Shown one piece after another: positions 2,867 through 44,493 of a DNA stretch of 64,000 nt. The notes beneath the pieces were generated by a model, which did not search any database, had not been told where the DNA came from, and saw nothing but the letters and a program-made list of their open reading frames with translations. The stretch lies in the IMG/VR virus record IMGVR_UViG_3300045942_000110. One strand, 5' to 3'. Numbering within the stretch: the stretch's first letter is position 1; each line of letters begins with the position of its first letter. The DNA comes from a virus. The position numbers and the translations under genes were made by a program.

Positions 2867-3179
2867 ACGGCGTCGCGCCGAGATCGAAGCTCAGGGCCAC
2901 AGTGTTCAGCCCGAGGACGTTGCTGCTCGAGCGCGATTGGCGACAGCCACAGCGCATCTTGACGACGACTGGGACGAGACCGAGACCACGGCGAAGCGCC
3001 ATGCCAGAAACGCAGCCGAGACCCTCGAAACCGCAGAGCACGACACCGCTGTCAGCGCGGCTGCAGTAAACGACTGGCGCTCGACCCTAGGGTTCTTCCG
3101 AGACTTGTACGACAAGAACGGTTTCGGGGAGGACATCATGAAGATCTGGCGAGGTACACCACGACGGAGAGCGTCATGA
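2838..3179 (+). CDS. hypothetical protein
   Basis: GTG start overlapping the previous gene by 29 nt. Acidic, helical composition. No family recognised. Confidence 0.45.
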   Translation: MTDNPSSRSERRRAEIEAQGHSVQPEDVAARARLATATAHLDDDWDETETTAKRHARNAAETLETAEHDTAVSAAAVNDWRSTLGFFRDLYDKNGFGEDIMKIWRGTPRRRAS

Positions 3180-5290: not shown

Positions 5291-5310
5291 GTGATACACT
5301 TGTACTACAG
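5291..5310 (+). promoter_or_regulatory. class-1 promoter-like motif, copy A
   Basis: gtgatacacttgtactacag: TGnTACAnT extended -10-like element plus GTAnTAC core, 39 nt before ATG 5349. The opposite strand carries TTGACT. Confidence 0.6.
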
Positions 5311-11446: not shown

Positions 11447-11466
11447 GTGATACACTTGTACTACGG
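11447..11466 (+). promoter_or_regulatory. class-1 promoter-like motif, copy B
   Basis: gtgatacacttgtactacgg, upstream of gene 11509. Confidence 0.6.
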
Positions 11467-16545: not shown

Positions 16546-16564
16546 AGGTACACTAGTAGCACGG
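16546..16564 (+). promoter_or_regulatory. class-1 promoter-like motif, copy G (divergent)
   Basis: aggtacactagtagcacgg, 36 nt before GTG 16600. Confidence 0.45.
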
Positions 16565-19015: not shown

Positions 19016-19090
19016 TTCCTCTCCTCTTTCCTCTCTCTCCCTTTCTATAGAAAGGGAGAGGAGAGAGGGAAAGGAGAAAGAGAGAAGAGA
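19016..19090 (+). repeat. polypyrimidine/polypurine inverted repeat (long hairpin), copy 1
   Basis: The CT-only arm ttcctctcctctttcctctctctccctttc pairs, around a tata loop, with the AG-only arm gaaagggagaggagagagggaaaggagaaag. It lies between stop 19011 and ATG 19096. Confidence 0.8.
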
Positions 19091-20646: not shown

Positions 20647-20666
20647 GTGCTACACTTGTACTACGG
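20647..20666 (+). promoter_or_regulatory. class-1 promoter-like motif, copy C
   Basis: gtgctacacttgtactacgg, 48 nt before ATG 20714. Confidence 0.6.
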
Positions 20667-32170: not shown

Positions 32171-32220
32171 AGCCCCGGCTTGGACTACATCATCAAATGT
32201 GGTTCAGGCCGGGGCTTTTT
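32171..32220 (+). terminator. intrinsic terminator (GC stem plus T5)
   Basis: agccccggc / gccggggct extendable to about 16 bp, followed by ttttt. It ends the untranslated 31.7-32.2 kb locus. Confidence 0.8.
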
Positions 32221-32289: not shown

Positions 32290-32565
32290 GTGGCCGATCC
32301 TCTCAGCACCCCCGGGCTTCCCTGCCCCGAGTGTCGAGAGCGCCTACGCAGCGACGGCCAAGAGGTCACTGGCATGAACCGGATCGGCAACCGCCGCGGG
32401 ATCTGCATGACGTGCAACGCGTTCGTACAGGCTGTGAAGCGGCATGCGGCTTCGCGCCTGAAGGAGCTGCACGCCGAGGACTACGAGCGCATGCGCCTGG
32501 CCGTCGAGATGGACCTGTACCCGGGTGTCATCGAGAAGTGGAACCTCGAGAAGGGCCTGCGATGA
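32290..32565 (+). CDS. small zinc-ribbon-like protein
   Basis: Contains CPECRERL...CMTCNAF. Predicted leaderless GTG start. Confidence 0.55.
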   Translation: MADPLSTPGLPCPECRERLRSDGQEVTGMNRIGNRRGICMTCNAFVQAVKRHAASRLKELHAEDYERMRLAVEMDLYPGVIEKWNLEKGLR

Positions 32566-33284
32566 CCGTCCTGCTCTACAGCTACAAGGCTGCCCTCGAC
32601 GACGGAGTCGAGCTCAAGCACTCGCTGCGCTCGGTGCAGCAGAACCTCCAGTTGGGCGACGAGCTGCAGGTGATGCTGGTCGGCGACCGACCGCCGGCGT
32701 GGTGCATTCCCGACGAGTGGGTGCAGGGCAACCCCGGCGACGACAAGGTCGCGAACATGGCCTACAACGTGCGGGCTGCCCTCGGGAAGCTTCGTGACAT
32801 CGCCGATCAGGGCGTCAACTTCGGAGACATCCTCTACCTGTCCGACGACTACTTCCTCCTGGACGTGGCGACGGCGGTACCGACGCTGAACGCGGGACTG
32901 CTGCGTGACCACGTCGAGCGCTGCCGCCGGGACCTGAGTGCTGGCCACTGGTACACCGCGGCGCTGGGCATGACGCATCAGGCCGTTCTGGGCATCCCTG
33001 GCGGGCCGTCATGGCCGCTGAGCTACGAGCTGCACCGCCCGTTTCCGCTCGACCTGTACACCGCGATCGACGCTCTCGACACCCTCCCCGATAAGGCGCT
33101 GTGGCGCACGTGGTACGGCAATTATGCCGAGCCCACCAGCTTCGCGGCGCGCGACGGTCGCTATGTCGGCCGGTCGTTCCCGATGGGCGTGCCGTGGGTG
33201 TCGACCGAAGAGTCCGCCTGGGCATCCTGGGCGGGCAAGCGCCTGGCCACGATGTTCCCGAACCCCTCGAGGTGGGAGCGATGA
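32562..33284 (+). CDS. putative glycosyl/hexose-phosphate transferase (Stealth-like?)
   Basis: ATGA coupling. ILYLSDDYFLL resembles the acidic DD motif of Stealth/GT-A enzymes. The assignment is tentative. Confidence 0.5.
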   Translation: MTVLLYSYKAALDDGVELKHSLRSVQQNLQLGDELQVMLVGDRPPAWCIPDEWVQGNPGDDKVANMAYNVRAALGKLRDIADQGVNFGDILYLSDDYFLLDVATAVPTLNAGLLRDHVERCRRDLSAGHWYTAALGMTHQAVLGIPGGPSWPLSYELHRPFPLDLYTAIDALDTLPDKALWRTWYGNYAEPTSFAARDGRYVGRSFPMGVPWVSTEESAWASWAGKRLATMFPNPSRWER

Positions 33285-33997
33285 CCGCGACTTTCCCCGT
33301 CCTGCCCGTCAAGCTGACGCCGGGCCCGATCCCGGCCGTCGTGCACCAGGTGTGGGTCGGCGGCGAGCCGCCCGCCTGGGTGCGTCCGCTCTGGGACCGC
33401 TGGGACGACTACGCGGCCGCACACCACCTCGAGATCCGACGGTGGACGGATGCCAACACCGAGCACACGCTGAGCCATCGGCTCATGGAGCAGTTTCACC
33501 TCACGCCGGTGCAGATGAGCGACTTCCTACGTATCGAGGTTCTGGCGATGCAGGGCGGCATCTACATGGACAGCGACACGTTCCCGCTGCAGCCGCTGCG
33601 CGAGGCGTACGGCGAAATGCCGGCGTGGTTCGCGCACGGGCAGGACTACATCAAGTCCGGAGCGCCGACCGTGTCGAACGCGATGATGGGCTTTCCGCAG
33701 GGCCACCCGTTCCTCTCGGACCTGTTCGACCACGGCGTGCGCGCGCTGCGTCGCGGGGTGAAGAACACGTTCGACATCATCGGGCCGGCGGCGATCCGCC
33801 GCGAGCTCGACAAGGTCGTTCTGACCAGTCCGGCCACAGAGATCAAGGTGGCGCCGGCGAAGCTGTTCCCCGCCTACCGGAAGGCCGACAAGGCCCTCGA
33901 GGCATCCCTCGGACGTCCGCTGAGCGAGGACGAGCTGCAGAAGCGCTTCCCGAACGCGCTGGTCGTGCACCGCAGCGCAGTGAGCTGGGTGAACTGA
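33281..33997 (+). CDS. glycosyltransferase, GT32-like (DXD)
   Basis: VHQVWVGG...PAW, SDFLRIEVLAMQGGIYMDSDTFPL. Confidence 0.75.
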   Translation: MTATFPVLPVKLTPGPIPAVVHQVWVGGEPPAWVRPLWDRWDDYAAAHHLEIRRWTDANTEHTLSHRLMEQFHLTPVQMSDFLRIEVLAMQGGIYMDSDTFPLQPLREAYGEMPAWFAHGQDYIKSGAPTVSNAMMGFPQGHPFLSDLFDHGVRALRRGVKNTFDIIGPAAIRRELDKVVLTSPATEIKVAPAKLFPAYRKADKALEASLGRPLSEDELQKRFPNALVVHRSAVSWVN

Positions 33998-34704
33998 TGT
34001 CGAAGATCAAGCTTCCCTCCCTGCCCGTCGACGAACACGAGGTCGGCATTCCGAAGGTCCTTCACCGCATCTGGGTCGGAGGTCCGATCCCGGCGTGGGT
34101 CCAGGCCAGCTGGGACCGTCAGGATCGCTCTCTCGCCGTGGCGCACGACGGCTGGCAGGTATGGACGTATACCGACGAGACGCTGGTGCACCTGCCGGGC
34201 ATCTTCCAGCACGTGGCCGAGGTAGCTGACGCCTACGGGCTGCCTCCTCGAGGGAAGGCAGACCTGCTGCGCGTCGCTGCAGTCGGACTGCATGGTGGGT
34301 TCTACCTCGACGCTGACGTCGTGATTCTGCGATCGCTCGACGACATCTTCGAGAACTCCGGGGTCAGCACGTGGACGACGTCGCACGCGGAGAGCTACGA
34401 CCAGCAGGTGCTGTGGAACGGCGGGTTCGCTGCCACCCGCTTCAGCCCGTACATGGCGGAGATCATGGCCTTCGCTCAGCACAAGCTCGAGCGGGGCGTT
34501 ACGAACGAGCACTTCCTCGCCGGCCCGCGGGCGTACCGGACGTTCCTGCCGACGGGACCCACCTCGATCACCGAGTGGAACTTCCAGTTCGAGGCCACCG
34601 CGGCCGAGCGGCGCATAATGGCCGCCGGCGGCGAGTTCGACCTGGTGGACATGCGCCGCGCGTACCCCGCTCGGCTGAAGCACGTGGGACCGAGGGAGGA
34701 CTGA
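33997..34704 (+). CDS. glycosyltransferase, GT32-like paralogue
   Basis: LHRIWVGGPIPAW, ADLLRVAAVGLHGGFYLDADVVIL. Confidence 0.75.
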   Translation: MSKIKLPSLPVDEHEVGIPKVLHRIWVGGPIPAWVQASWDRQDRSLAVAHDGWQVWTYTDETLVHLPGIFQHVAEVADAYGLPPRGKADLLRVAAVGLHGGFYLDADVVILRSLDDIFENSGVSTWTTSHAESYDQQVLWNGGFAATRFSPYMAEIMAFAQHKLERGVTNEHFLAGPRAYRTFLPTGPTSITEWNFQFEATAAERRIMAAGGEFDLVDMRRAYPARLKHVGPRED

Positions 34705-34705
34705 G

Positions 34706-35473
34706 ATGAAGCTGCCCACCCTGCACATCCTGACCGTGGCGGATGCCGGCGACGAGCGCGACGACATCGTGGCGTCGTATGTTGACGGAGCCACTCCGGA
34801 CTCCAAGGTGTTGGTCCACGTGGACGAGGAACGCCGTGGGATCATGTGGAACTGGCTGCACACCGCTGAGCACGCCCTGGCGTATGACGACACGAAGTGG
34901 TCGATCATCATCCAGGACGATGCAGCCGCACTGCCGGGCTGGCGCACGCTGTTGCCCGAGGCGCTGTGGTTCTCGCCGGCGCCGATCCTAGGCATGAGCC
35001 ACTTCGGCCAGATCACGGATACCGCCCACCGCGCTGGTGTCCCCTACCTGGTGGGCCCTCACCTCATCTGGGGTGCGGCCGTGGCCTACCGCCGGGACTT
35101 CCTCGAGGGTCTCGTACCGTGGGCGCGCCGGGTGTACGAGGCGACCGGCTACCCGCACGACGATCGGCTGGTGTCGGCGTACGCGAACAAGATCGGCGTC
35201 GACACGGCGTTGACCACGCGTGCGCTGTTCGACCAGCCCGTCGAGAAGAGCACGGTGGGCCACGGCGGCCAGAACCGTCGGCCGGGTCACACCATCCTCG
35301 AGCCGGGCGCGCACTACGGTGTGCGGCCTCGTGCACGGCGCAAGGCCAGCGGCGGAGCGCCTGAGCAGCGCGAGTGGCTCAAGGATCTCTTCACCCCGAA
35401 CGAACACCCCACCCACGGCTTCCAGGTCATCCGCAGCGGTGCGGTCACCTGGGCAGCGAAGGAGACCTCGTGA
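34706..35473 (+). CDS. glycosyltransferase, GT-A fold
   Basis: WSIIIQDDAAALPGW DXD-type motif. gagggagg SD upstream. Confidence 0.6.
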   Translation: MKLPTLHILTVADAGDERDDIVASYVDGATPDSKVLVHVDEERRGIMWNWLHTAEHALAYDDTKWSIIIQDDAAALPGWRTLLPEALWFSPAPILGMSHFGQITDTAHRAGVPYLVGPHLIWGAAVAYRRDFLEGLVPWARRVYEATGYPHDDRLVSAYANKIGVDTALTTRALFDQPVEKSTVGHGGQNRRPGHTILEPGAHYGVRPRARRKASGGAPEQREWLKDLFTPNEHPTHGFQVIRSGAVTWAAKETS

Positions 35474-35937
35474 TCACGCTGCACATCGGCATCACCGTGC
35501 GGGATTCGCGCGTGCAGGAGCTGCTCGAGCTGCTCGACTACGAGTACATCGGCATGTATGGCGAGCCCGATCCAGACCCGCGGGGCGGCATCTATGGCTC
35601 GGACGCCATCCTGCTGACGGAGACCAGCCTGTCGCGCAATACGTCCGATTTCCCGATCGCCGTGTGCGGCGTCAGCTGGAGTGCGAGCGAGAAGGCGCAC
35701 GTGCTACATCGTCTGTTCGTGCGCTACTCGCGACGCGGCCAGGGCCACTCCCGGACGCTCATGACGGCCGCCGAGCTGTTCGTGCGTCAGAACGACGGCA
35801 CGCGGCTCATCCTGGAGACCGGTGAGACGCAGACGGCCGCGCTGGCACTGTACAAGAACCTCGGGTACACCCCGACGGAGCCTTTCGGCTACTACGCTGA
35901 CCAGCCCACCAGCCGATTCCTCGGAAAGGACCTCTGA
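35470..35937 (+). CDS. GNAT family N-acetyltransferase
   Basis: LFVRYSRRGQGHSRTLMTAAE...ALALYKNLGY matches the acetyl-CoA binding motif A. GTGA coupling. Confidence 0.75.
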   Translation: MITLHIGITVRDSRVQELLELLDYEYIGMYGEPDPDPRGGIYGSDAILLTETSLSRNTSDFPIAVCGVSWSASEKAHVLHRLFVRYSRRGQGHSRTLMTAAELFVRQNDGTRLILETGETQTAALALYKNLGYTPTEPFGYYADQPTSRFLGKDL

Positions 35938-36938
35938 TGCCGAAGAGGATCGAGGTGCTGACCGCGCCTCCCGCGTTCACGCCCACGCTGCACCAGGAGG
36001 AGCTGGAGTGGTTCATGGCCAACGCTCCGACGTGGGGCTGGCACTGGGCCAAGACGTTCGCGAAGGGCGCCCATCACTCGTACGTGATGAAGGGCAAGCA
36101 CCTCGACGCAGAGACTTACGAGCGCGCGGTGCGCGTGGTCATGGCGCTGGGACAGCCGGCGAACTTCCACCGGCGGGTGAACCTCGAGCTGCACCTGCAC
36201 AACCTGGAGATGCCGTACGGCGCTCCGGGCGAGGAGCAGGTGTTGCGGGGCTTCAAGTTCTGGCCGATGACGAACGAGATGTCGATCAGCCAGGCGTTCA
36301 ACGTGGCGCCGGTGCACCTGTCGTACGGTGCGCAGACGGCGGTGGCGTCCAGAGACGAGCTCACGCGCCCGGACCAGTGGGACTTCCCGGCGGCCGACCT
36401 CGACTGGTACCTCAACAACCCCGAGGTCCGGACGCTCGAGCGGTGGAAGGGCGCGCTGCACAAGGCCCTCGGGATCCCCTCGGGGAACTTCGTCAACAGC
36501 GCGATCGAGCTGGGCCCGTCGACGGGCTTCGCCAAGGACCTGGGCCTGATCGCCGACAACGCGGAGTACCGTCTCGTACAGGGCAGCCAGGGCCTGATGA
36601 ACCAGGCGATCTTCAAGCACGACGTGCGCGACATCCGCCCGATGGACGTCAACGAGTACCTCGACCCGTGGCACTGGGAGGCCGGCGACACGGCGAACAC
36701 GGTACTCGCGCTCTTCGGCGCCGCGTCATACTTGAGCCCAGGGGCTGTGGAGCAGGCGTTCGTTCGAGCGCGCAGCCGTCTGGTGCTCATGCACCACCTG
36801 CCCGATACGGGGACGCAGCGCGACTTCGGAGTGCGTCTGCACCCGGAGCACCGCGAGTCGCTGCAGACGGCTGAGAACCTGCCGGGCGCGCGCACGGTGC
36901 GAGCCCAGGGATACGCGATCACGGTGGTGAGGAAGTAA
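35937..36938 (+). CDS. hypothetical protein, possible SAM-methyltransferase-like C-terminal half
   Basis: TGATG coupling at both ends. AIELGPSTGF loosely resembles methyltransferase motif I. The function is weakly supported. Confidence 0.5.
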   Translation: MPKRIEVLTAPPAFTPTLHQEELEWFMANAPTWGWHWAKTFAKGAHHSYVMKGKHLDAETYERAVRVVMALGQPANFHRRVNLELHLHNLEMPYGAPGEEQVLRGFKFWPMTNEMSISQAFNVAPVHLSYGAQTAVASRDELTRPDQWDFPAADLDWYLNNPEVRTLERWKGALHKALGIPSGNFVNSAIELGPSTGFAKDLGLIADNAEYRLVQGSQGLMNQAIFKHDVRDIRPMDVNEYLDPWHWEAGDTANTVLALFGAASYLSPGAVEQAFVRARSRLVLMHHLPDTGTQRDFGVRLHPEHRESLQTAENLPGARTVRAQGYAITVVRK

Positions 36939-38311
36939 TGGCTCTGACGGTCGAAGAGAAGGAGCAGCGCGCCGCAGAGCGGCAGCGTCTGCGGGACGAG
37001 CGGGCGGCCACCCTCGCGAAGGAGAAGGCGGACGCCAAGGCGGAGCGCGACCAGGAGCGGGCGGCACGCAAGGCGACCGAGGAGGCCGAGAAGGCCGAGC
37101 GCGCACGTCTGCGCCAGGAGGCGCGCGACGCGCCGTTCATCAACCGTGCGCTGGTCGAGATCGACATGCCCGTCTATGACGCGGCGCTTGAGCGGATCCG
37201 CTGGCTCTGGAAGGAGTTCGACGGCAACCTCTCGGTGAGCATCTCCGGCGGCAAGGACTCCACGGTGATCATGGAGCTGGCTGCGATCGTCGCGCGCGAG
37301 AACGGCGCTCGGCTGAAGGTGCAGTTCCTCGACCAGGAGGCGGAGTGGCAGGCCACGCGTGACTACCTGCGAGAGCTGAAGGACACGCGCGAGGACATCG
37401 ACTTCGACTGGTACCAGGTGCCCTTCAAGCTGTTCAACGCGTCGAGCCACGGCGCCGAGGGCGAGTGGGGTTACATGTGGCCGGAGATCGAGCCCGAGAG
37501 CGGCTACATGCGGCCACCCGAGCACGACTCGATCCGCGTCAACGACTTCGGGGTGGACCGCTTCACCGAGGTGCTGCATGAGATGAACCGCCGCGCCGGC
37601 GGCGTGCACCTGTCCGGAATGCGCGCCGAGGAGGCGCCCACCCGCCGTCTGGGTATGACGTCGAAGCCTGCGTACAAGTGGGCGACGTGGGGCGCTGGGG
37701 ACCCCTCGGGGACGCCGAACACGCCGGGCCAGTTCTGGTTCATGCACCCGATCTACGACTGGTCGTTCCGCGACATCTGGAAGGCGATCGAGGCCAACGG
37801 GTGGAAGTACAACCGTCTCTACGACGAGATGTACCGCTACGGCGTGAACCACCGTGAGATGCGCGTGAGCAGCCTCATCCACTCGGGCGCCGTGCGCCAC
37901 ATCGAGCAGATTCAGGAGATCGAGCCCGCGACGTGGGAGCGCCTGGTGGGCCGGTACGGCGGCGTGAACGCTGCAGCGCACGTCGGCGAGGACTCTCTCG
38001 AGGAGTTCCGCCGGAAGCGGCCGTGGATGTTCGACAGCTGGCTGGAGTACGCCGAGTACCTGATCGACAACCTCATCGAGCCGGAGCACCGGCCGAAGTT
38101 CCGCAAGCTGATCGCCACGTACAAGGCCCAGTGCCCGTGGATGCACATCGACCGGGTGGCGCAGAAGATGCTGCCGCTGATCATGAAGAACGACTACTTC
38201 AGCGACTACTCCTTCGGGAAGATGCTGAACACGAGCAAGACCTGGGCGGACCAGTACCAGGAGAAGAACGGGCCGCTGCCCGTCGACTGGGCCAAGCCCG
38301 TCGAGGACTGA
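36938..38311 (+). CDS. PAPS-reductase / PP-loop ATP-pyrophosphatase family protein (IbrA-like)
   Basis: PP-loop SISGGKDST. About 60 aa of K/E/R/A-rich N-terminal extension. Followed by ParB-fold genes. Confidence 0.75.
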   Translation: MALTVEEKEQRAAERQRLRDERAATLAKEKADAKAERDQERAARKATEEAEKAERARLRQEARDAPFINRALVEIDMPVYDAALERIRWLWKEFDGNLSVSISGGKDSTVIMELAAIVARENGARLKVQFLDQEAEWQATRDYLRELKDTREDIDFDWYQVPFKLFNASSHGAEGEWGYMWPEIEPESGYMRPPEHDSIRVNDFGVDRFTEVLHEMNRRAGGVHLSGMRAEEAPTRRLGMTSKPAYKWATWGAGDPSGTPNTPGQFWFMHPIYDWSFRDIWKAIEANGWKYNRLYDEMYRYGVNHREMRVSSLIHSGAVRHIEQIQEIEPATWERLVGRYGGVNAAAHVGEDSLEEFRRKRPWMFDSWLEYAEYLIDNLIEPEHRPKFRKLIATYKAQCPWMHIDRVAQKMLPLIMKNDYFSDYSFGKMLNTSKTWADQYQEKNGPLPVDWAKPVED

Positions 38312-38324
38312 GGGGAAGCAGAGC

Positions 38325-39071
38325 ATGACAGAGAAGGCGATCGGCACGGCCGTCGTGGAGGGGCGCACCACGCGCGTCCAGATCCCTCCGGTGGACCCGG
38401 AGAAGCAGGCGGTGGTCGACCAGATCAACGAGACGAACCGGCTGAACTACGAGCGCCTCGTCGAGGCGGGCGTGCTCGCGGACGACATGCCGGTGGCGCG
38501 CGTGCAGCTGCTGCACATCAGCCGTGTCCAGGCGAACGACTACAACCCCAACGCGGTGGCGGCCGACGAGATGCGCCTGCTGCACACCTCGATCAGCGAG
38601 GACGGCTACACGATGCCGATCGTCGCGATCTGGGACGCGGAGGCCGACGGCGGCCAGGGCAAGGCGATCATCGTGGACGGGTTCCACCGCTACACAACGA
38701 TGCGGATGTTCCAGGACATTGCGGACCGCAACAGCGGGTACCTGCCCGTCTCGCTGATCAAGAAGGACGTCAGCGACCGCATCGCCTCGACCGTGCGCCA
38801 CAACCGCGCGCGCGGGAAGCACTCCGTCGCCGGCATGGGCACGCTGGTGTTCCAGATGCTCGAGCAGGGCGAGGACGACCTCACCATCTGCAACAAGCTG
38901 GGAGTCGACGTCGAGGAGCTGGCGCGTCTGAAGCACGTGACCGGATACTCGAAGCTGTACGGTCCCGACAAGGCGCCGGCGTACTCGAACGTCGTGCTGA
39001 CCGGCAGCCAGATGCAGGCCAAGGCCGACTACAAGAAGGAGCACCCCGATGAGTCCGTCCCCCGCTACTGA
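38325..39071 (+). CDS. ParB/sulfiredoxin-fold protein (IbrB-like)
   Basis: VQANDYNPN, IIVDGFHRY, VRHNRARGKH. Confidence 0.7.
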   Translation: MTEKAIGTAVVEGRTTRVQIPPVDPEKQAVVDQINETNRLNYERLVEAGVLADDMPVARVQLLHISRVQANDYNPNAVAADEMRLLHTSISEDGYTMPIVAIWDAEADGGQGKAIIVDGFHRYTTMRMFQDIADRNSGYLPVSLIKKDVSDRIASTVRHNRARGKHSVAGMGTLVFQMLEQGEDDLTICNKLGVDVEELARLKHVTGYSKLYGPDKAPAYSNVVLTGSQMQAKADYKKEHPDESVPRY

Positions 39072-39633
39072 GGGCATGGAGCTGCGCGAGGTCGCGGTCT
39101 CCGATCTGATCCCGTACTGGCGCAACCCGCGTCGCATCAGCGACGAGGCCGTCGAGGCGATCATGCAGTCGATCGAGGAGTACGGCTACCAGCAGCCGAT
39201 CGTCGTGGACAGCGAGATGGTCATCGTGATGGGTCATACCCGCCACGCGGCGATCCGCCGGATGGGCTACCAGCGCGTCAACGTGCTCGTGGCCTCGGGG
39301 CTGTCGGCGAAGCAGATCAAGGAGCTGCGCACGATCGACAACCGCACCTCGGAGTTCACGCGGTGGGACTTCGACAAGCTCATGGACGAGCTCGGCACAG
39401 TGGACCAGAACCTCATGGCCTCGTTCTTCCCCGAGATCATCGACCCGGTGAAGGCTGAGGTGGTCGACGAGGACGGCAACATCGAGCAGCTGACGATCGA
39501 GGTCACCGCGAAGAAGGAGGACCCGGAGGCGGAGTTCATCTGCCCCGAGTGCTTCCACGGCTGGAAGATGCAGATCAGCAAGGAGGACGTGCTCTCGGGC
39601 CACCTCTACGTCAAGAAGGAGACCCAGGCGTGA
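39049..39633 (+). CDS. ParB N-terminal domain protein, paralogue 1
   Basis: aaggag SD 7 nt upstream. LIPYWRNPRRI, QQPIVVD...VIVMGHTRH. C-terminal CPECFHG. Confidence 0.7.
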   Translation: MSPSPATEGMELREVAVSDLIPYWRNPRRISDEAVEAIMQSIEEYGYQQPIVVDSEMVIVMGHTRHAAIRRMGYQRVNVLVASGLSAKQIKELRTIDNRTSEFTRWDFDKLMDELGTVDQNLMASFFPEIIDPVKAEVVDEDGNIEQLTIEVTAKKEDPEAEFICPECFHGWKMQISKEDVLSGHLYVKKETQA

Positions 39634-40265
39634 GCGACGCGACGAACACCGAGGCGCCGGCGCGCGACCTCGTTCCGGGATTGGTCGGCGAGCTGAAGTT
39701 TGTGCCGATCGAGACGCTGGTCCCGTACGAGAACAACCCGCGCTCGATCCCGCAGGACGCCATCGACGCGGTGGCGGAGAGCATCAAGCGCTACGGCTGG
39801 CAGCAGCCGATCGTGGTCGACGAGGAGATGGTGATCGTCGTTGGTCACACCCGGCGACAGGCCGCGCTGAGCCTCGGGCTCACCTCGGTGCCGATCCACG
39901 TCACGAAGCTGCCGGCGGAGAAGATCCGTGAGTACCGGTTGGTGGACAACCGCACGGGCGAGATGTCGAGCTGGGATCACGACTCGCTCGTCATGGAGCT
40001 GCGTGAGTTCGACAACGACCTGCTGCAGGTCTTCTTCCCGGAGATCGACCTCGAGTCGAATCTCATCGCCAACGCGACGGGACCCACCGAGCAGGAGATG
40101 AAGTGGGCCGAGGAGAAGGCCGGCAACGTCAAGGGCGCCTCGGATGCCAGCATGCACACGACCGACGTGACGTGCCCGTCGTGCGAGGGGCACTTCAAGG
40201 TGAAGACGCGCTCGCTGCCGGGCATGGACACCAAGACCATCGAGGACATGGCGGATGGCGACTGA
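39630..40265 (+). CDS. ParB N-terminal domain protein, paralogue 2
   Basis: GTGA coupling. LVPYENNPRSI, QQPIVVD...VIVVGHTRR. C-terminal CPSCEGH. Confidence 0.7.
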   Translation: MSDATNTEAPARDLVPGLVGELKFVPIETLVPYENNPRSIPQDAIDAVAESIKRYGWQQPIVVDEEMVIVVGHTRRQAALSLGLTSVPIHVTKLPAEKIREYRLVDNRTGEMSSWDHDSLVMELREFDNDLLQVFFPEIDLESNLIANATGPTEQEMKWAEEKAGNVKGASDASMHTTDVTCPSCEGHFKVKTRSLPGMDTKTIEDMADGD

Positions 40266-40806
40266 CAGCAACGCAGCACGCGACTCCGCCGAGGAGACGC
40301 TGAGAGGCCGCGGCAACGAGGTCCAGGTGCAGCAGCAGCGTCGAAGCGAGGCGGTGTCGCTGCGCCTGGCCGGCATGAGCTACGAGCAGATCGGTGAGCG
40401 TCTCGGCATCAGCGGCAACGCCGCGGAGCAGATGATCGGCCGAGCTCTGGACCGCAACGAGGTCCGCTCGGTCAGCCAGCTGCGCGCCGAGGAGAATGCT
40501 CGCCTGGACCGTGCGCAGATGGCTATCTGGGGCAAGGTCATCGAGGGCGACATCAAGGCGATCGGCACGTTCCTGCAGATCAGCGCGGCCCGCTCGAAGA
40601 TGAACGGGCTGTACGCTCCCACGCAGGTGCAGGTGTCGATGACCATCCGTCAGGAGATGGAGGAGGCCCTGCAGTCCCTCGAGACGCTGGTGCTCGGCGA
40701 GAGCCAGTACGCACAGAGCGACCCGGTAGGCCCCAACGGCCCGATGCGCCTGGAGGAAGCACGCGATGTCACAGACGCTGGTCACTCAGCCCCGCCTGTC
40801 CCCTGA
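40255..40806 (+). CDS. terS: terminase small subunit-like HTH protein
   Basis: Sigma-70 region-4-like HTH LRLAGMSYEQIGERLGISGNAAEQMIGRAL, then a helical oligomerisation-like region. Lies directly upstream of and overlapping terL. Confidence 0.55.
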   Translation: MATDSNAARDSAEETLRGRGNEVQVQQQRRSEAVSLRLAGMSYEQIGERLGISGNAAEQMIGRALDRNEVRSVSQLRAEENARLDRAQMAIWGKVIEGDIKAIGTFLQISAARSKMNGLYAPTQVQVSMTIRQEMEEALQSLETLVLGESQYAQSDPVGPNGPMRLEEARDVTDAGHSAPPVP

Positions 40807-42484
40807 GGAGTTCAAGAAGCGCCTCGCTGAACTCAAACGCCTGGCGGCCAACGCGGCATCCGAGTCGGAGGGTCGAGAGATCCTCAGCCGTATCGCGCAG
40901 GTCAGCCGCGCGTTCCGTGTGCAGAACGGCATCGGCCTGCCGCTGAACCCCGCGCTGCAGGCGCAGGAGATCGACCCGGGCTTCCGCATTCGCCCGCACA
41001 TCGACTACCTCTCGAACAAGATCGCCGAGGCGGTTCGGGACGTGGAGAACGGCAAGAGCCGACGCCTGATCGTGTCGATGCCACCTCGAGCCGGCAAGAG
41101 CACATTGACGAGCCTCTGGACGCCGCTGTGGATTCTCCGACGGCATCCCGAGTGGAAGTTCATGATGGCGTCCTACGACGGGGCGCTGACGACGAACTGG
41201 GCACGCCAGCAGCGCACGATGATCGAGGACCGGCCCGACCTCGGTGTGGCGCTGATGCGAGACGGCGGTGCCGGCGGTAAGTGGGCCACGGTGGAGAAGG
41301 GCGGCATGTTCGCCACCGGTGTGGGTGGCGCGATGACCGGTCGCGGTGCGAAGGTGATGCTGATCGACGACCCGATCGCCGACTTCGTGAGCGCCCACTC
41401 GCTGCGCATCCGCGACAACCTCTGGAACTGGTGGCTGTCGGTGGCGCAGACACGCCTCGAGCCGCCGTCCCTGGTGATCGTGGTCATGACGCGGTGGCAC
41501 GAGGACGACTTCGTCGGCCGGCTGCTGAGCAAGGAGTACGAGGGCGACCCCTCGGAGTGGGAGGAGATCGTGCTGCCGGCGATCGCCGACCGTGAGAACG
41601 ACCCGCTGGGCCGGGAGATCGGTGAGCCGCTGTACAGCCCGCTCCCGAGCCTGGACTACGAGCTGAACGACCCGGAGGCCGCGGTGCGGCGCTGGGACAA
41701 GGTCAAGGTCGACGTGGGCTCGTACACGTTCGCGTCGATGTACCAGCAGCGGCCGGCGCCCCAGAAGGGTGCCATCTTCGACGCGGGCTGGTGGCGGTTC
41801 TGGACGACGAATCCGAACCGTGCGACCGAGGACGGCCGCGTTATGTTCCTCGACCCGGGCGGTCTGGTCGGTGCGCAGTGGCTGGACAGCTGGGACACGG
41901 CGTTCAAGGCGTCCGAGGACTCCTCGTGGGTGGTGGCGCAGCGCTGGGCGAAGCAGGGACCGAACCGATACCTCATCACGCAGAAGCGCGGGCGCTGGTC
42001 GTTCACGAAGACGCTGCAGGAGTTCAAGAAGTGGGCGGTCAAGGACAACCACGGCGAGAGCCCGTTCGGGAAGTTCGTGCATAAGTCGCTGATGGAGGAG
42101 AAGGCCAACGGTGCCGCCATCATCGACACGGTGAAGGAGGAGATCAGCGGGATCAAGGCGATCAACCCGCGCACCTCGAAGGAGGCGCGTGCGCGCGCGA
42201 TCACGCCCGAGGTGGAGTCCGGTCACGTCTACCTGCCGCACCCGCTGGACCCCGGCAACGAGTGGGTCACCGACCTACTCAGCGAGCTGCGCAACTTCCC
42301 TCACGACACCAATGACGACCAGGTCGACGGTCTGACCCAGGCCCTCGAAGAGTTCCGCGAAGGCGGGGGCGGCGGTATCAGCGTGCCCGGCCGGCGCCCA
42401 GCGCCTGGCATCCAGGGCCGGTCGATCCCTCGGAACATCACGGCGGCCGCTGCGACGATGGGTCGGCGCATCCCTGGCAGGTAG
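40766..42484 (+). CDS. terL: terminase large subunit
   Basis: Walker A PPRAGKST and Walker B-like MLIDDP. C-terminal RNaseH-like nuclease region (DSWDTAFK..., NDDQVD). Confidence 0.85.
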   Translation: MSQTLVTQPRLSPEEFKKRLAELKRLAANAASESEGREILSRIAQVSRAFRVQNGIGLPLNPALQAQEIDPGFRIRPHIDYLSNKIAEAVRDVENGKSRRLIVSMPPRAGKSTLTSLWTPLWILRRHPEWKFMMASYDGALTTNWARQQRTMIEDRPDLGVALMRDGGAGGKWATVEKGGMFATGVGGAMTGRGAKVMLIDDPIADFVSAHSLRIRDNLWNWWLSVAQTRLEPPSLVIVVMTRWHEDDFVGRLLSKEYEGDPSEWEEIVLPAIADRENDPLGREIGEPLYSPLPSLDYELNDPEAAVRRWDKVKVDVGSYTFASMYQQRPAPQKGAIFDAGWWRFWTTNPNRATEDGRVMFLDPGGLVGAQWLDSWDTAFKASEDSSWVVAQRWAKQGPNRYLITQKRGRWSFTKTLQEFKKWAVKDNHGESPFGKFVHKSLMEEKANGAAIIDTVKEEISGIKAINPRTSKEARARAITPEVESGHVYLPHPLDPGNEWVTDLLSELRNFPHDTNDDQVDGLTQALEEFREGGGGGISVPGRRPAPGIQGRSIPRNITAAAATMGRRIPGR

Positions 42485-43314: not shown

Positions 43315-43480
43315 CGTGGACACGCTCTTCCTCATCGGTCACGGTGAGCCATTCCCGGTGACGGTGCTCACGCGTGCGCACCGCCACAACGACCAGACCT
43401 GCTTGATATCCACCCTCGCCGGCTACACGGCGCGCGTTCGCGCTGACGAGCTGAAGACCCTGAAGGAGTACCTCGGATGA
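43304..43480 (+). CDS. hypothetical small protein (58 aa, below ORF-track cutoff)
   Basis: My translation is MARDVDTLFLIGHGEPFPVTVLTRAHRHNDQTCLISTLAGYTARVRADELKTLKEYLG. Its stop is in an ATGA overlap with the ligase start. Confidence 0.55.
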   Translation: MARDVDTLFLIGHGEPFPVTVLTRAHRHNDQTCLISTLAGYTARVRADELKTLKEYLG

Positions 43481-44493
43481 ACCTGATCAAGCCGATGAAG
43501 ATGACCGACGTCCCCGTGACGACGGCGGAGCAGTACATCACCGACCCGTCGTGGGTGATGGAGCAGAAGATGGACGGCGCCCGAGCGCTGGTGAGCTGGT
43601 CTCTTTCGGAAGGCTTCACCTGGCAGGCGTCCGGCGGCGGTCCGCTGAAGTTCGCCGCGGCGGTGCAGCACTTCGAGGTGATCGAGGCGGAGCTGATTCG
43701 GGTGTTCGGTCGCGCGGGTGTCGTTGACGTCGTGCTCGACGCTGAGCTGATCGTCGAAGACGCCGAGCTGCGGGTGTTCGACGTGGTGCGTGCTGTCGAC
43801 ATGGCTGGTCGAGTGTTCGTCGGCCCTGACAGCGTGACGGCGTACCGCCTTGGGGTACGTGACGGGCTGATCCCTGACAACCTGCGCGTGATGTTGGATC
43901 ACGTCAAGATCGTGCGTACAGCGTGGATAGAGAAAGACAAGCGCTCGATGTGGGAAGACATCAACGCCGCCGGCGTCGAAGGCGCGATGGTGAAGGAGCT
44001 CGGCGGCGTGTACGAGCCGGGTGTGCGCACGAAGAGCGTGCTCAAGCTCAAGCTGGTGAAGACCGTCGACGCGATCGTCACGGCCGTCGACCGGAAGTTC
44101 GACCACAAAGGCATGGTCACGCACGGCTCGGCCGACCTCGCGCTCATGATCCGTCCCGAGCAGGACCCGCTGCCGTACGTCAGCAAGGTCACGGGGAAGC
44201 GCATCACTGCTGAGGCGTACGACCAGGGGCTTTTCCACGGCACCGCCGCTCAGAAAGCCCGGGCGTTGGCTCACGAGCTTGCTCCCCGGGAGCGGATCCA
44301 GGTCGGCGCTGCGAGCCTGATCGGCAAGGATCTCACGATCGACGTCGGCGACGTGGTGGAGGTCGCATACCTCTACTGGGGCGGCGGTGCCCTCGTGCAG
44401 CCCCGCATCCTGCGCAAGCGTCTGCCGGAGGAGAAGCTCCCGGACGACTGCCACATGGACCAGGTGCCGGCATACTCGCGACGGGCGGTGTGA
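43477..44493 (+). CDS. ATP-dependent DNA ligase
   Basis: Adenylation motif I EQKMDGAR (KxDG). EGAMVKE and KLK motifs, plus a C-terminal OB-like region. Confidence 0.85.
   Translation: MNLIKPMKMTDVPVTTAEQYITDPSWVMEQKMDGARALVSWSLSEGFTWQASGGGPLKFAAAVQHFEVIEAELIRVFGRAGVVDVVLDAELIVEDAELRVFDVVRAVDMAGRVFVGPDSVTAYRLGVRDGLIPDNLRVMLDHVKIVRTAWIEKDKRSMWEDINAAGVEGAMVKELGGVYEPGVRTKSVLKLKLVKTVDAIVTAVDRKFDHKGMVTHGSADLALMIRPEQDPLPYVSKVTGKRITAEAYDQGLFHGTAAQKARALAHELAPRERIQVGAASLIGKDLTIDVGDVVEVAYLYWGGGALVQPRILRKRLPEEKLPDDCHMDQVPAYSRRAV

Follow-up and report, generated by a model that had tools for sequence, protein, structure and literature searches.

PP-loop ATP pyrophosphatases that resemble phosphoadenosine phosphosulfate (PAPS) reductases are found next to proteins of the ParB superfamily in several systems, among which the E. 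coli pairs IbrA/IbrB and YbdN/YbdM are the closest to the gene module analysed here. The module lies on the + strand of a virus sequence of 64,000 nucleotides (IMG/VR record IMGVR_UViG_3300045942_000110; this whole stretch is called the window in what follows), where a PAPS-reductase-like gene, an IbrB-like gene and two ParB_N genes lead into the genes of the terminase. For IbrA/IbrB-type pairs, a full-text literature search returned annotation-level mentions only and no demonstrated chemistry, as had already been stated in the first-pass annotation of the window, a model's reading of the sequence. In the literature searched, which did not cover Iyer et al. 2013, no description was found of a regular third component of such pairs, of the F3 domain presented below or of a linkage to terminases.

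Several described systems bring the same kinds of protein together. DndC, SspD and BrxP, found with DndB, combine a PAPS-reductase-like PP-loop enzyme working on DNA with a ParB-superfamily protein of the DGQHR type (PMC10853773), and both BrxP and DndC carry additional domains (PMC12839542). The 5mYOX thymine dioxygenases are ParB-dependent (PMC13229309), and DpdB, the companion of DpdA, is summarised in PMC12839542 as a ParB-fold protein that powers or activates the neighbouring DNA-modifying enzyme. Binding of CTP, ATP or GTP is described for ParB-fold proteins encoded by phages, in which fusion to a methyltransferase is frequent (PMC12704722).

By its sequences, the module of the window is assigned to the IbrA/IbrB (YbdN/YbdM) family; GenBank already contains this gene string from four Microbacterium phages. 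As detailed below, its core has three regular parts, it recurs upstream of terminases of unrelated types, and it most likely acts on phage DNA.

The IbrA/IbrB-type pair and its ParB_N/CPxC partners

The enzyme of the pair (36938..38311, 457 amino acids) is, judging from sequence and fold, of the IbrA/YbdN type and adenylyltransferase-like. It carries the motif SISGGKDST, exceeds the Pfam thresholds for PAPS_reduct (51.9 bits, cut-off 22.5) and for its C-terminal DUF3440 domain (37.1 bits, cut-off 25), and is 28% identical to E. coli YbdN over the full length, DUF3440 included (E 6e-36). Residues 1-66 are rich in K, E, R and A and form one long helix (residues 5-64) in the AlphaFold2 (AF2) model; since this charged extension is confined to the closest relatives, it was not retained as a family feature. 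In an alignment of 21 diverse homologs reaching down to 40% identity (A1), the PP-loop SGGKDS is invariant together with polar residues that include LDQE.E, G.R..E...RR and MRVS...H. A1 contains no conserved cysteine column; the single cysteine of the window enzyme is at a non-conserved position, and sulfur chemistry of the CysH and DndC types is thereby excluded. The enzyme profile is matched at E<=1e-30 by 514 clusters (50% identity) among 1.84 billion representative proteins, and PADLOC gave a weak BrxP match over the PP-loop region and no other defence-system assignment.

For the AF2 model of the enzyme (pLDDT 80.9), the best Foldseek matches were the PAPS domain of FAD synthase, PAPS and adenosine phosphosulfate (APS) reductases, FMN adenylyltransferase and CysD (E 1e-6 to 6e-4, target TM-score 0.45-0.68), with tRNA thiolases matched more weakly. 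These fold matches span the N-terminal alpha/beta domain only, the all-helical DUF3440 region being left with no partner. Sequence and profile searches with the enzyme likewise found the generic PP-loop fold and no solved close relative in the PDB. Both FMN adenylyltransferase and CysD catalyse AMP transfer, the acceptor being an oxyanion.

The second gene (38325..39071) encodes a 248-residue protein of the IbrB/YbdM type, with a ParB/Srx fold and a C-terminal part resembling a helix-turn-helix (HTH). With E. coli YbdM it shares 40% identity (E 6e-38), and its signature motifs read IVDGFHRYT and VRHNRARGKHS; their cores (DGxHR, RHNRARG) are invariant in the family alignment (A2), and diverse members share 55-65% identity, an unusual degree of conservation. 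The relationship to ParB, in turn, is only distant in the sequence comparisons. The window protein itself does not match Pfam ParB_N, 16 of 20 family members do so and 9 of 20 match GmrSD_N, hhalign aligns the family with that of the ParB_N paralogs at a probability of 81% (E 1.2e-5), and in the PDB the profile weakly matches ParB and, about equally well, the serine kinase SerK and SbnI. The ParB-fold proteins of the module are thus assigned by sequence to two distinct families, IbrB-like and ParB_N.

The ParB_N family is represented by two adjacent paralogs of 36% protein identity, both with the GHTR motif, the first (39076..39633, alternative start 39049) of 185 residues and ending in CPEC, the second (39630..40265) of 211 residues and ending in CPSC. 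The first matches Pfam ParB_N, phrog_620 and the N-terminal domain of phrog_498, the second Pfam ParB_N with an E value of 9.5e-10, and the two genes still share 137 nucleotides at 70% DNA identity with a spacing of 611 nucleotides (repeat D1). The family profile retrieves Noc, Spo0J and ParB through their CTPase domains (E 3e-14 to 8e-11), the two copies match the ParB domain of the phage ParB-DNA-methyltransferase fusions of phrog_498 (E 1e-31 and 9e-30), and the PADLOC model MTase_II also matches the family (E 1e-19). In the corresponding alignment (A3) the ParB box motifs PY..NPR, GH.R..A and ADN..SE are kept, and the C-terminus holds a nearly invariant CPxC...F with the only two conserved cysteines of the family. 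The family has neither a parS-binding HTH nor the C-terminal domain of ParB. PDB searches with the IbrB and ParB_N proteins retrieved generic ParB folds and no solved close relatives.

Two other identities were considered for the ParB_N proteins and rejected. As partition ParB proteins they score 30.9 and 42 against a TIGR00180 cut-off of 58.45, the N-terminal domain alone being matched. As ParB-DNA methyltransferase fusions they align with the ParB part only (positions 33-176 of the 633 of phrog_498). The annotations of the relatives list no ParA. Around the module no parS-like or pac-like arrays, repeats or palindromes were detected beyond the ParB_N paralogy, the cognate parS sequence being undefined.

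The first-pass annotation had described a 457-residue protein with SGGKDS and a K/E/R/A-rich N-terminal extension of about 60 residues, directly followed by an IbrB-like protein with DGFHR and HNRARGKH and by two paralogous ParB-N proteins with GHTR, and had placed the pair in the IbrA/IbrB type; all of these features were found as described. The profile and structure-prediction check that it had recommended gave scores above threshold for PAPS_reduct, DUF3440 and, in both paralogs, ParB_N, with generic PP-loop fold matches for the enzyme.

Gene neighbourhood and linkage to the terminase genes

Gene neighbourhoods were surveyed in the 80 best-scoring viral loci with relatives of the enzyme, which represent its closest kin and not a random sample of the family. 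Open reading frames (ORFs) were called, clustered and searched with hidden Markov models (HMMs); 79 loci had a callable enzyme gene, and dereplication at 70% identity left 48 lineages. IbrB adjoins the enzyme, nearly always directly downstream, in 78 of the 79 loci and in all 48 lineages. A ParB_N/CPxC gene, immediately following IbrB or preceding the enzyme by 1-2 kb, is present in 74 loci and 46 lineages. With such frequencies, the combination of one enzyme and three ParB-fold proteins, initially described as an expanded "1+3" version, is not unusual and becomes a conserved three-part core with one duplication, ParB_N/CPxC being its regular third component; the duplication is not peculiar to the window either, because the same order with two ParB_N genes is found in relatives at 47-49% identity (precomputed Pfam labels). 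Next in frequency is the F3 family (53/79 loci, 37/48 lineages), followed by a glucosyltransferase-like gene (24 loci), a DNA-methyltransferase-like gene (22 loci) and a GNAT gene recurring upstream of the enzyme (19 loci). In one locus (L056), an ORF adjoining the PAPS-like gene at 1355-1732 matches S-adenosylmethionine decarboxylase (AdoMet_dc, E 1.5e-10).

A recognised gene for the large terminase subunit (TerL) lies downstream in 55 of the 79 loci. Of those with at least 4 kb of downstream sequence, 54 in number and taken as assessable, 44 have a TerL gene no more than about 4 kb away; an HMM detected 41 of these (median distance 1.7 kb), and the other three are of the GpA type. Four Pfam groups of TerL stand beside the module (Terminase_3, Terminase_6N/6C, TerL_ATPase/TerL_nuclease and GpA), covering cos and headful packaging alike. 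The longest ORF-free stretch of the + strand between enzyme and TerL is at most 50 nucleotides in 45 of 55 loci, a length that is a lower bound, ORFs having been taken at maximal length. In a locus whose enzyme is 49% identical (L160, 9101-10622), the terminase is apparently interrupted, with an Endonuclease_7 ORF followed by a TerL fragment and a weak Intein_splicing match. In the Arthrobacter phage Laroye the order is ParB, PAPS-reductase, ParB-like, methyltransferase, HTH and TerL.

The association extends to bacterial genomes of many phyla, in which strong matches to the PAPS-like enzyme are accompanied by IbrB and often by ParB_N and TerL; where the match is strong and the flanks are long enough, IbrB stands beside the enzyme in nearly all cases, whereas weak matches come without IbrB, ParB_N and TerL. 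The pair may also be placed differently, as in S. thermophilus phages, where it sits after the lysis genes, in the mycobacteriophage Nebkiss, where it is found among replication genes, and in the Flavobacterium phage FCV-1, where it is inserted between TerL and the portal gene. Since the core pair also occurs away from terminases, packaging is not an obligatory part of the activity of the module. The survey of this gene order before terminases, which the first-pass annotation had called for, thus upholds the physical coupling to packaging genes as a frequent arrangement that is not specific to the window, but not as a constant one.

In the window, genes overlap or nearly abut from 32562 onward, most of the starts being preceded by Shine-Dalgarno-like sequences. 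The enzyme and IbrB-like genes are separated by 13 nucleotides, the IbrB-like and first ParB_N genes by 4 nucleotides (a 23-nucleotide overlap if the start at 39049 is used), the two ParB_N genes overlap through GTGA, the second ParB_N gene and the HTH gene by 11 nucleotides, and the HTH gene and TerL by 41 nucleotides. TerL itself (40766..42484) matches Terminase_6N and Terminase_6C as well as phrog_38 (E 2.4e-95). Upstream, the unit is limited by a very strong terminator-like hairpin (32171..32216, + strand, 20-bp stem followed by a T run), and a scan of the 29-46 kb region revealed neither another + strand terminator-like site nor any sigma-70-type promoter. The operon coupled to the terminase genes that had been proposed for this region is therefore supported by the tight packing and the overlaps, except that it starts at about 32562 instead of 36938.

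The HTH protein encoded between the second ParB_N gene and TerL (40255..40806, 183 residues) is a putative small terminase subunit (TerS): it is small, has its HTH at the N-terminus (Sigma70_r4_2, 27.9 bits), and in 39 of the 79 loci its place is taken by a small HTH or TerS-like gene. It matches no TerS family in Pfam or NCBIfam, nor the TerS-like HMMs built from other loci, and PDB searches returned no solved close relative. The overlapping run of genes into TerL stands as initially read, while the name "terS-like" is carried by the HTH and the gene position. The protein also matches phrog_645, labelled "Rnase E", a name repeated for gene 4 of the Microbacterium phage Hendrix in RefSeq; the sequence offers nothing in favour of an RNase, and the label looks like a propagated misnomer.

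The module does not end at the enzyme gene, as its first description in terms of four genes implied, since the F3-methyltransferase, GNAT and glucosyltransferase-like genes upstream belong to it too. The first of these (35937..36938) encodes a 333-residue fusion of an F3 domain, located at about residues 18-125, with a part of class I methyltransferase fold. In most loci F3 is a stand-alone protein of about 90 residues with the pattern W.FAKTMP..PH.Y...IR..G...KYWTMG...INRA; the fusion occurs in the window and in some other loci. The window protein matches the F3 HMM (E 1.9e-7) and is annotated as "methyltransferase" in the relatives; profile searches with F3 found neither a Pfam family nor any relative by sequence in the PDB. 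With the AF2 model of the window protein (pLDDT 88.5, pTM 0.88), Foldseek matched the C-terminal half to methyltransferases that act on small molecules or sugar nucleotides, TcaB9 and TylM1 among the latter (about E 1e-6), and the results for the full model are dominated by this half. The glycine-rich motif reads ELGP(S/T)TG instead of DxGCGTG.

The GNAT acetyltransferase gene (35470..35937; NCBIfam and PHROG acetyltransferase matches) overlaps the upstream stop through GTGA. It follows the gene of a glucosyltransferase-like protein (34706..35473), which matches phrog_854 (E 4.2e-10) and the HMM of the neighbourhood family f38 (E 1.3e-6); the families f8 and f38 of other phages match phrog_854 as well, which by sequence makes this gene a member of the conserved neighbourhood. 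Further upstream are two DXD-type glycosyltransferases of Pfam PF04488 (Gly_transf_sug), at 33281..33997 (E 1.4e-8) and at 33997..34704 (E 3.5e-7, query from 34018), the ATG at 33997 overlapping the upstream stop by one nucleotide. The syntenic counterpart of the former in phage Rasputia is annotated as a glycosyltransferase. The first gene of the unit (32562..33284, 240 residues) overlaps the glycosyltransferase gene at 33281 by 4 nucleotides; it matches phrog_7999, of unknown function (E 1.2e-32), and no Pfam family.

Other observations concern the remainder of the window, which has a G+C content of 64-68% and in which the ORFs looked at are all on the + strand, as are almost all genes of the annotated relatives. 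Downstream of TerL, the 42500-64000 region contains many small ORFs and a DNA-ligase-like ORF (43477-44493) with no portal gene next to the terminase; Hendrix likewise has 40 ORFs between terminase and portal. The motif TACACTTGTACTAC occurs exactly at 5295-5308, 11451-11464 and 20651-20664 (+ orientation, preceded by cGTGa) and with three mismatches each at 3100-3113 and 16549-16562, that is, five matches in the window against 0.52 expected by chance. This repeat may serve the phage as a promoter or regulatory motif; the unit running from the glycosyltransferases to TerL has no copy ahead of it. A perfect 20-bp palindrome, TCCCTTTCTATAGAAAGGGA, lies at 19038-19057, with an AT-rich centre in a genome of 65% G+C.

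Candidate functions of the module

The explanation favoured here, with somewhat less than even confidence, is a nucleoside triphosphate (NTP)-gated, ParB-guided modification of phage DNA, of adenylylation type and made at packaging time. The module would be a late-expressed machine built around the IbrA/IbrB pair. The PP-loop enzyme, whose nearest structural relatives target phosphate or sulfate, would use ATP to adenylylate a substrate oxygen with release of pyrophosphate. IbrB would act as its obligate partner, holding a nucleotide in the ParB/Srx pocket (DGFHR, RHNRARGKH) and contacting DNA through the HTH-like part. The two ParB_N proteins would be nucleotide-gated DNA clamps or loaders that bring the enzyme to DNA or keep it there, and their chains may dimerise through the CPxC motifs by sharing one zinc ion, in the manner of a zinc hook that takes the place of the usual dimerisation domain. 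Tailoring of the product would then fall to the F3-methyltransferase, GNAT and glucosyltransferase-like proteins, and the DNA of the virions would be marked or protected on leaving the cell. The genes being co-transcribed and translationally coupled with those of the terminase, the activity would be timed to concatemeric DNA that is about to be packaged; a link through timing is preferred to one through a single cutting mechanism, because the module adjoins terminases of both cos and headful types. It is from the domains, residues and gene order described above, together with the precedents of ParB-dependent DNA-modifying enzymes, that we infer a DNA substrate, adenylylation, zinc-mediated dimerisation, packaging timing and a protective purpose. 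The first-pass proposal of a module for DNA modification, nicking or anti-restriction during packaging is partly supported, its action on DNA being hypothetical.

A more specific form of this explanation is rather unlikely as a whole, namely that the trio of IbrA, IbrB and ParB_N/CPxC together with F3 constitutes an undescribed DNA-modification machine, in which the clamps carry a cysteine-free adenylyltransferase along concatemers. The adenylyl-activated mark would in some phages be subsequently glycosylated, acetylated or methylated, and encapsidated DNA alone would be marked.

Several points weigh against a packaging-time DNA modification. No sequence signal of modified DNA is seen here, and neither the phage nor its annotated relatives encode a recognisable precursor pathway (hydroxymethylase, dioxygenase or cysteine desulfurase). 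The gene that in other loci matches the methyltransferase half of the phrog_498 fusion (family f4) has no HMM-detectable counterpart in the window, and by Foldseek the methyltransferase fold that is present stands nearer to small-molecule and sugar-nucleotide enzymes than to DNA methyltransferases. The set of glycosyltransferases, GNAT and methyltransferase could instead build a glycan of the virion or of the cell envelope. To these must be added the choice of closest kin for the survey and the core pairs lying far from terminases in S. thermophilus phages, in Nebkiss and on the E. coli K-12 chromosome. Finally, the only published phenotype of IbrA/IbrB is reportedly the activation of prophage gene expression (Sandt et al. 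2002), and the SEED label agrees.

This last point leads to the alternative that survives best, itself unlikely, in which the module would regulate late genes or genes acquired horizontally. The IbrB and ParB_N proteins would work as nucleotide-gated clamps that activate transcription or relieve silencing in a KorB/VirB-like manner, with the PP-loop enzyme supplying a modifying or energy-using step. Late activators classically hold the slot just upstream of terS in many siphoviruses, IbrB has an HTH-like C-terminal part, and a gene for a LysR-type regulator adjoins ybdNM in E. coli. The gene arrangement, however, speaks against it, because module genes that overlap the terS-like and TerL genes leave no room for a regulated promoter, and the longest ORF-free stretch before TerL is short in most of the loci surveyed. 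In addition, a plain regulator would need no enzyme with a fully conserved catalytic site, and its methyltransferase, GNAT and glycosyltransferase partners would be superfluous.

A packaging accessory, a doubtful reading and somewhat more so than a regulator, would fit the tight coupling of the genes to TerL and the HTH/TerS-like gene, as well as the downstream position of TerL in the large majority of assessable loci. The ParB-fold proteins would nick, process ends, condense concatemers or join TerS at the packaging start site, and the enzyme would adenylylate DNA ends or a packaging protein. Nicking of DNA by ParB/Srx proteins is indeed mentioned in PMC12839542 (citing Maindola 2014 and Johnson 1999), and relatives of the phage use headful packaging (PMC7302621). 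Against such a role stand the four unrelated TerL types found beside the module, cos-type GpA and headful ones included, which speak against one particular cutting mechanism, the core pairs that have no terminase nearby, and the failure to find a parS-like or pac-like repeat array around the module.

A further, improbable alternative is a pathway for an ADP-activated donor, in which IbrB would be a kinase (SerK/sulfiredoxin-like) and IbrA would adenylylate the resulting phosphate, so that glycosyltransferases, GNAT and methyltransferase attach and tailor a group on virion proteins or the cell envelope and not on DNA. It is consistent with FMN adenylyltransferase/FAD synthase and CysD being among the top fold matches of the enzyme, with the weak matches of the IbrB profile to SerK and SbnI at about the level of those to ParB, with the likeness of the methyltransferase fold to TcaB9 and TylM1, and with three glycosyltransferases and a GNAT in the unit that ends at TerL. 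Yet the ParB_N proteins clearly belong with the DNA clamps (Noc/Spo0J) and with the ParB domains found in DNA methyltransferase fusions, IbrB retains its HTH-like part, and glycosyltransferase-like genes accompany 24 loci as against 74 for ParB_N. The last alternative, a 457-residue auxiliary metabolic CysH that boosts host sulfate assimilation (the assignment that the first-pass annotation had itself named as fatal to its proposal), is suggested by the PAPS_reduct match and by the "phosphoadenosine phosphosulfate reductase" labels in PHROG and many genome annotations, but is effectively refuted by the scores for NCBIfam cysH (TIGR00434, 31 bits versus 165.1) and TIGR02057 (23.9 versus 254.2), by the absence of the catalytic C-terminal cysteine (ECGLH-type) from A1 and from the window protein in a family with no conserved cysteine, and by the constant pairing of the enzyme with ParB-fold proteins and not with sulfur-metabolism genes.

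The favoured modification of phage DNA provides a testable model with a culturable system at hand, Hendrix and Rasputia growing on Microbacterium foliorum. Should the product be a DNA mark, it would define a new class of enzymes that modify phage DNA and a role so far not assigned to the ParB fold; should it not be, a widespread annotation would still be corrected.

Phage relatives and comparison with known systems

The nearest named kin of the window are the Microbacterium phages Hendrix, Rasputia, Leaf and Dewdrop (genus Rogerhendrixvirus), with 73-85% DNA identity over the best-matching pieces; the window is a metagenomic relative distinct from all four, and two of its proteins have 100% identical counterparts on a JGI contig of 97,735 bp. 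Their gene string is that of the window: three glycosyltransferases, an acetyltransferase, the "methyltransferase", the PAPS-reductase-like protein, three ParB-like proteins, the HTH protein and the terminase. In the GenBank records of this group, gene numbering starts at the first ParB-like gene and ends at the PAPS-reductase-like gene, which hides their adjacency. The Hendrix genome is circularly permuted and packaged by a headful mechanism (PMC7302621), and the break between the two genes is consequently a drawing convention only. Rasputia carries three tRNA genes (Asn, Trp, Tyr) directly upstream of its syntenic glycosyltransferase cluster, and ARAGORN found no tRNA gene in the 64-kb window.

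Compared with the DndC/SspD/BrxP systems, the module shares the pairing of a PAPS-reductase-like PP-loop enzyme with a ParB-superfamily protein. The enzymes of those systems, however, have sulfur-receiving or Fe-S cysteines (PMC10853773, PMC12839542), whereas that of the window has neither a cysteine dyad nor Fe-S cysteines. Membership in the phosphorothioation systems was rejected for lack of a conserved cysteine in the enzyme family, and the annotations of the syntenic relatives include no cysteine desulfurase and no DndD or DndE. With the 5mYOX-ParB and DpdA-DpdB systems the module has in common a ParB-fold protein that has no canonical parS-binding domain and stands beside an enzyme; there the enzyme is a dioxygenase or a transglycosylase, whereas here it is a PP-loop ATP pyrophosphatase accompanied by two distinct families of ParB-fold proteins. 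With respect to the phrog_498 fusions, the ParB_N proteins of the window correspond to the N-terminal ParB domain but end in CPxC in place of the methyltransferase, a half that in other loci is encoded by the separate f4 gene.

The closest counterparts remain the E. coli pairs IbrA/IbrB and YbdN/YbdM, which have the two-gene order of the window and share with it the DGFHR and RHNRARG(K/R)H motifs. Pairs of this type are common and routinely mislabelled as sulfur-metabolism genes or partition proteins. The window enzyme differs from YbdN by its additional charged N-terminal helix, and the E. coli K-12 pair is chromosomal, with no ParB_N/CPxC, F3, glycosyltransferase, GNAT or terminase genes beside it. 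To this two-gene picture the present analysis adds that a third, clamp-like protein (ParB_N/CPxC) and an unnamed domain are normally found with the pair, that several kinds of tailoring enzymes usually accompany it and that, in the phage relatives surveyed, it precedes terminases of unrelated types.

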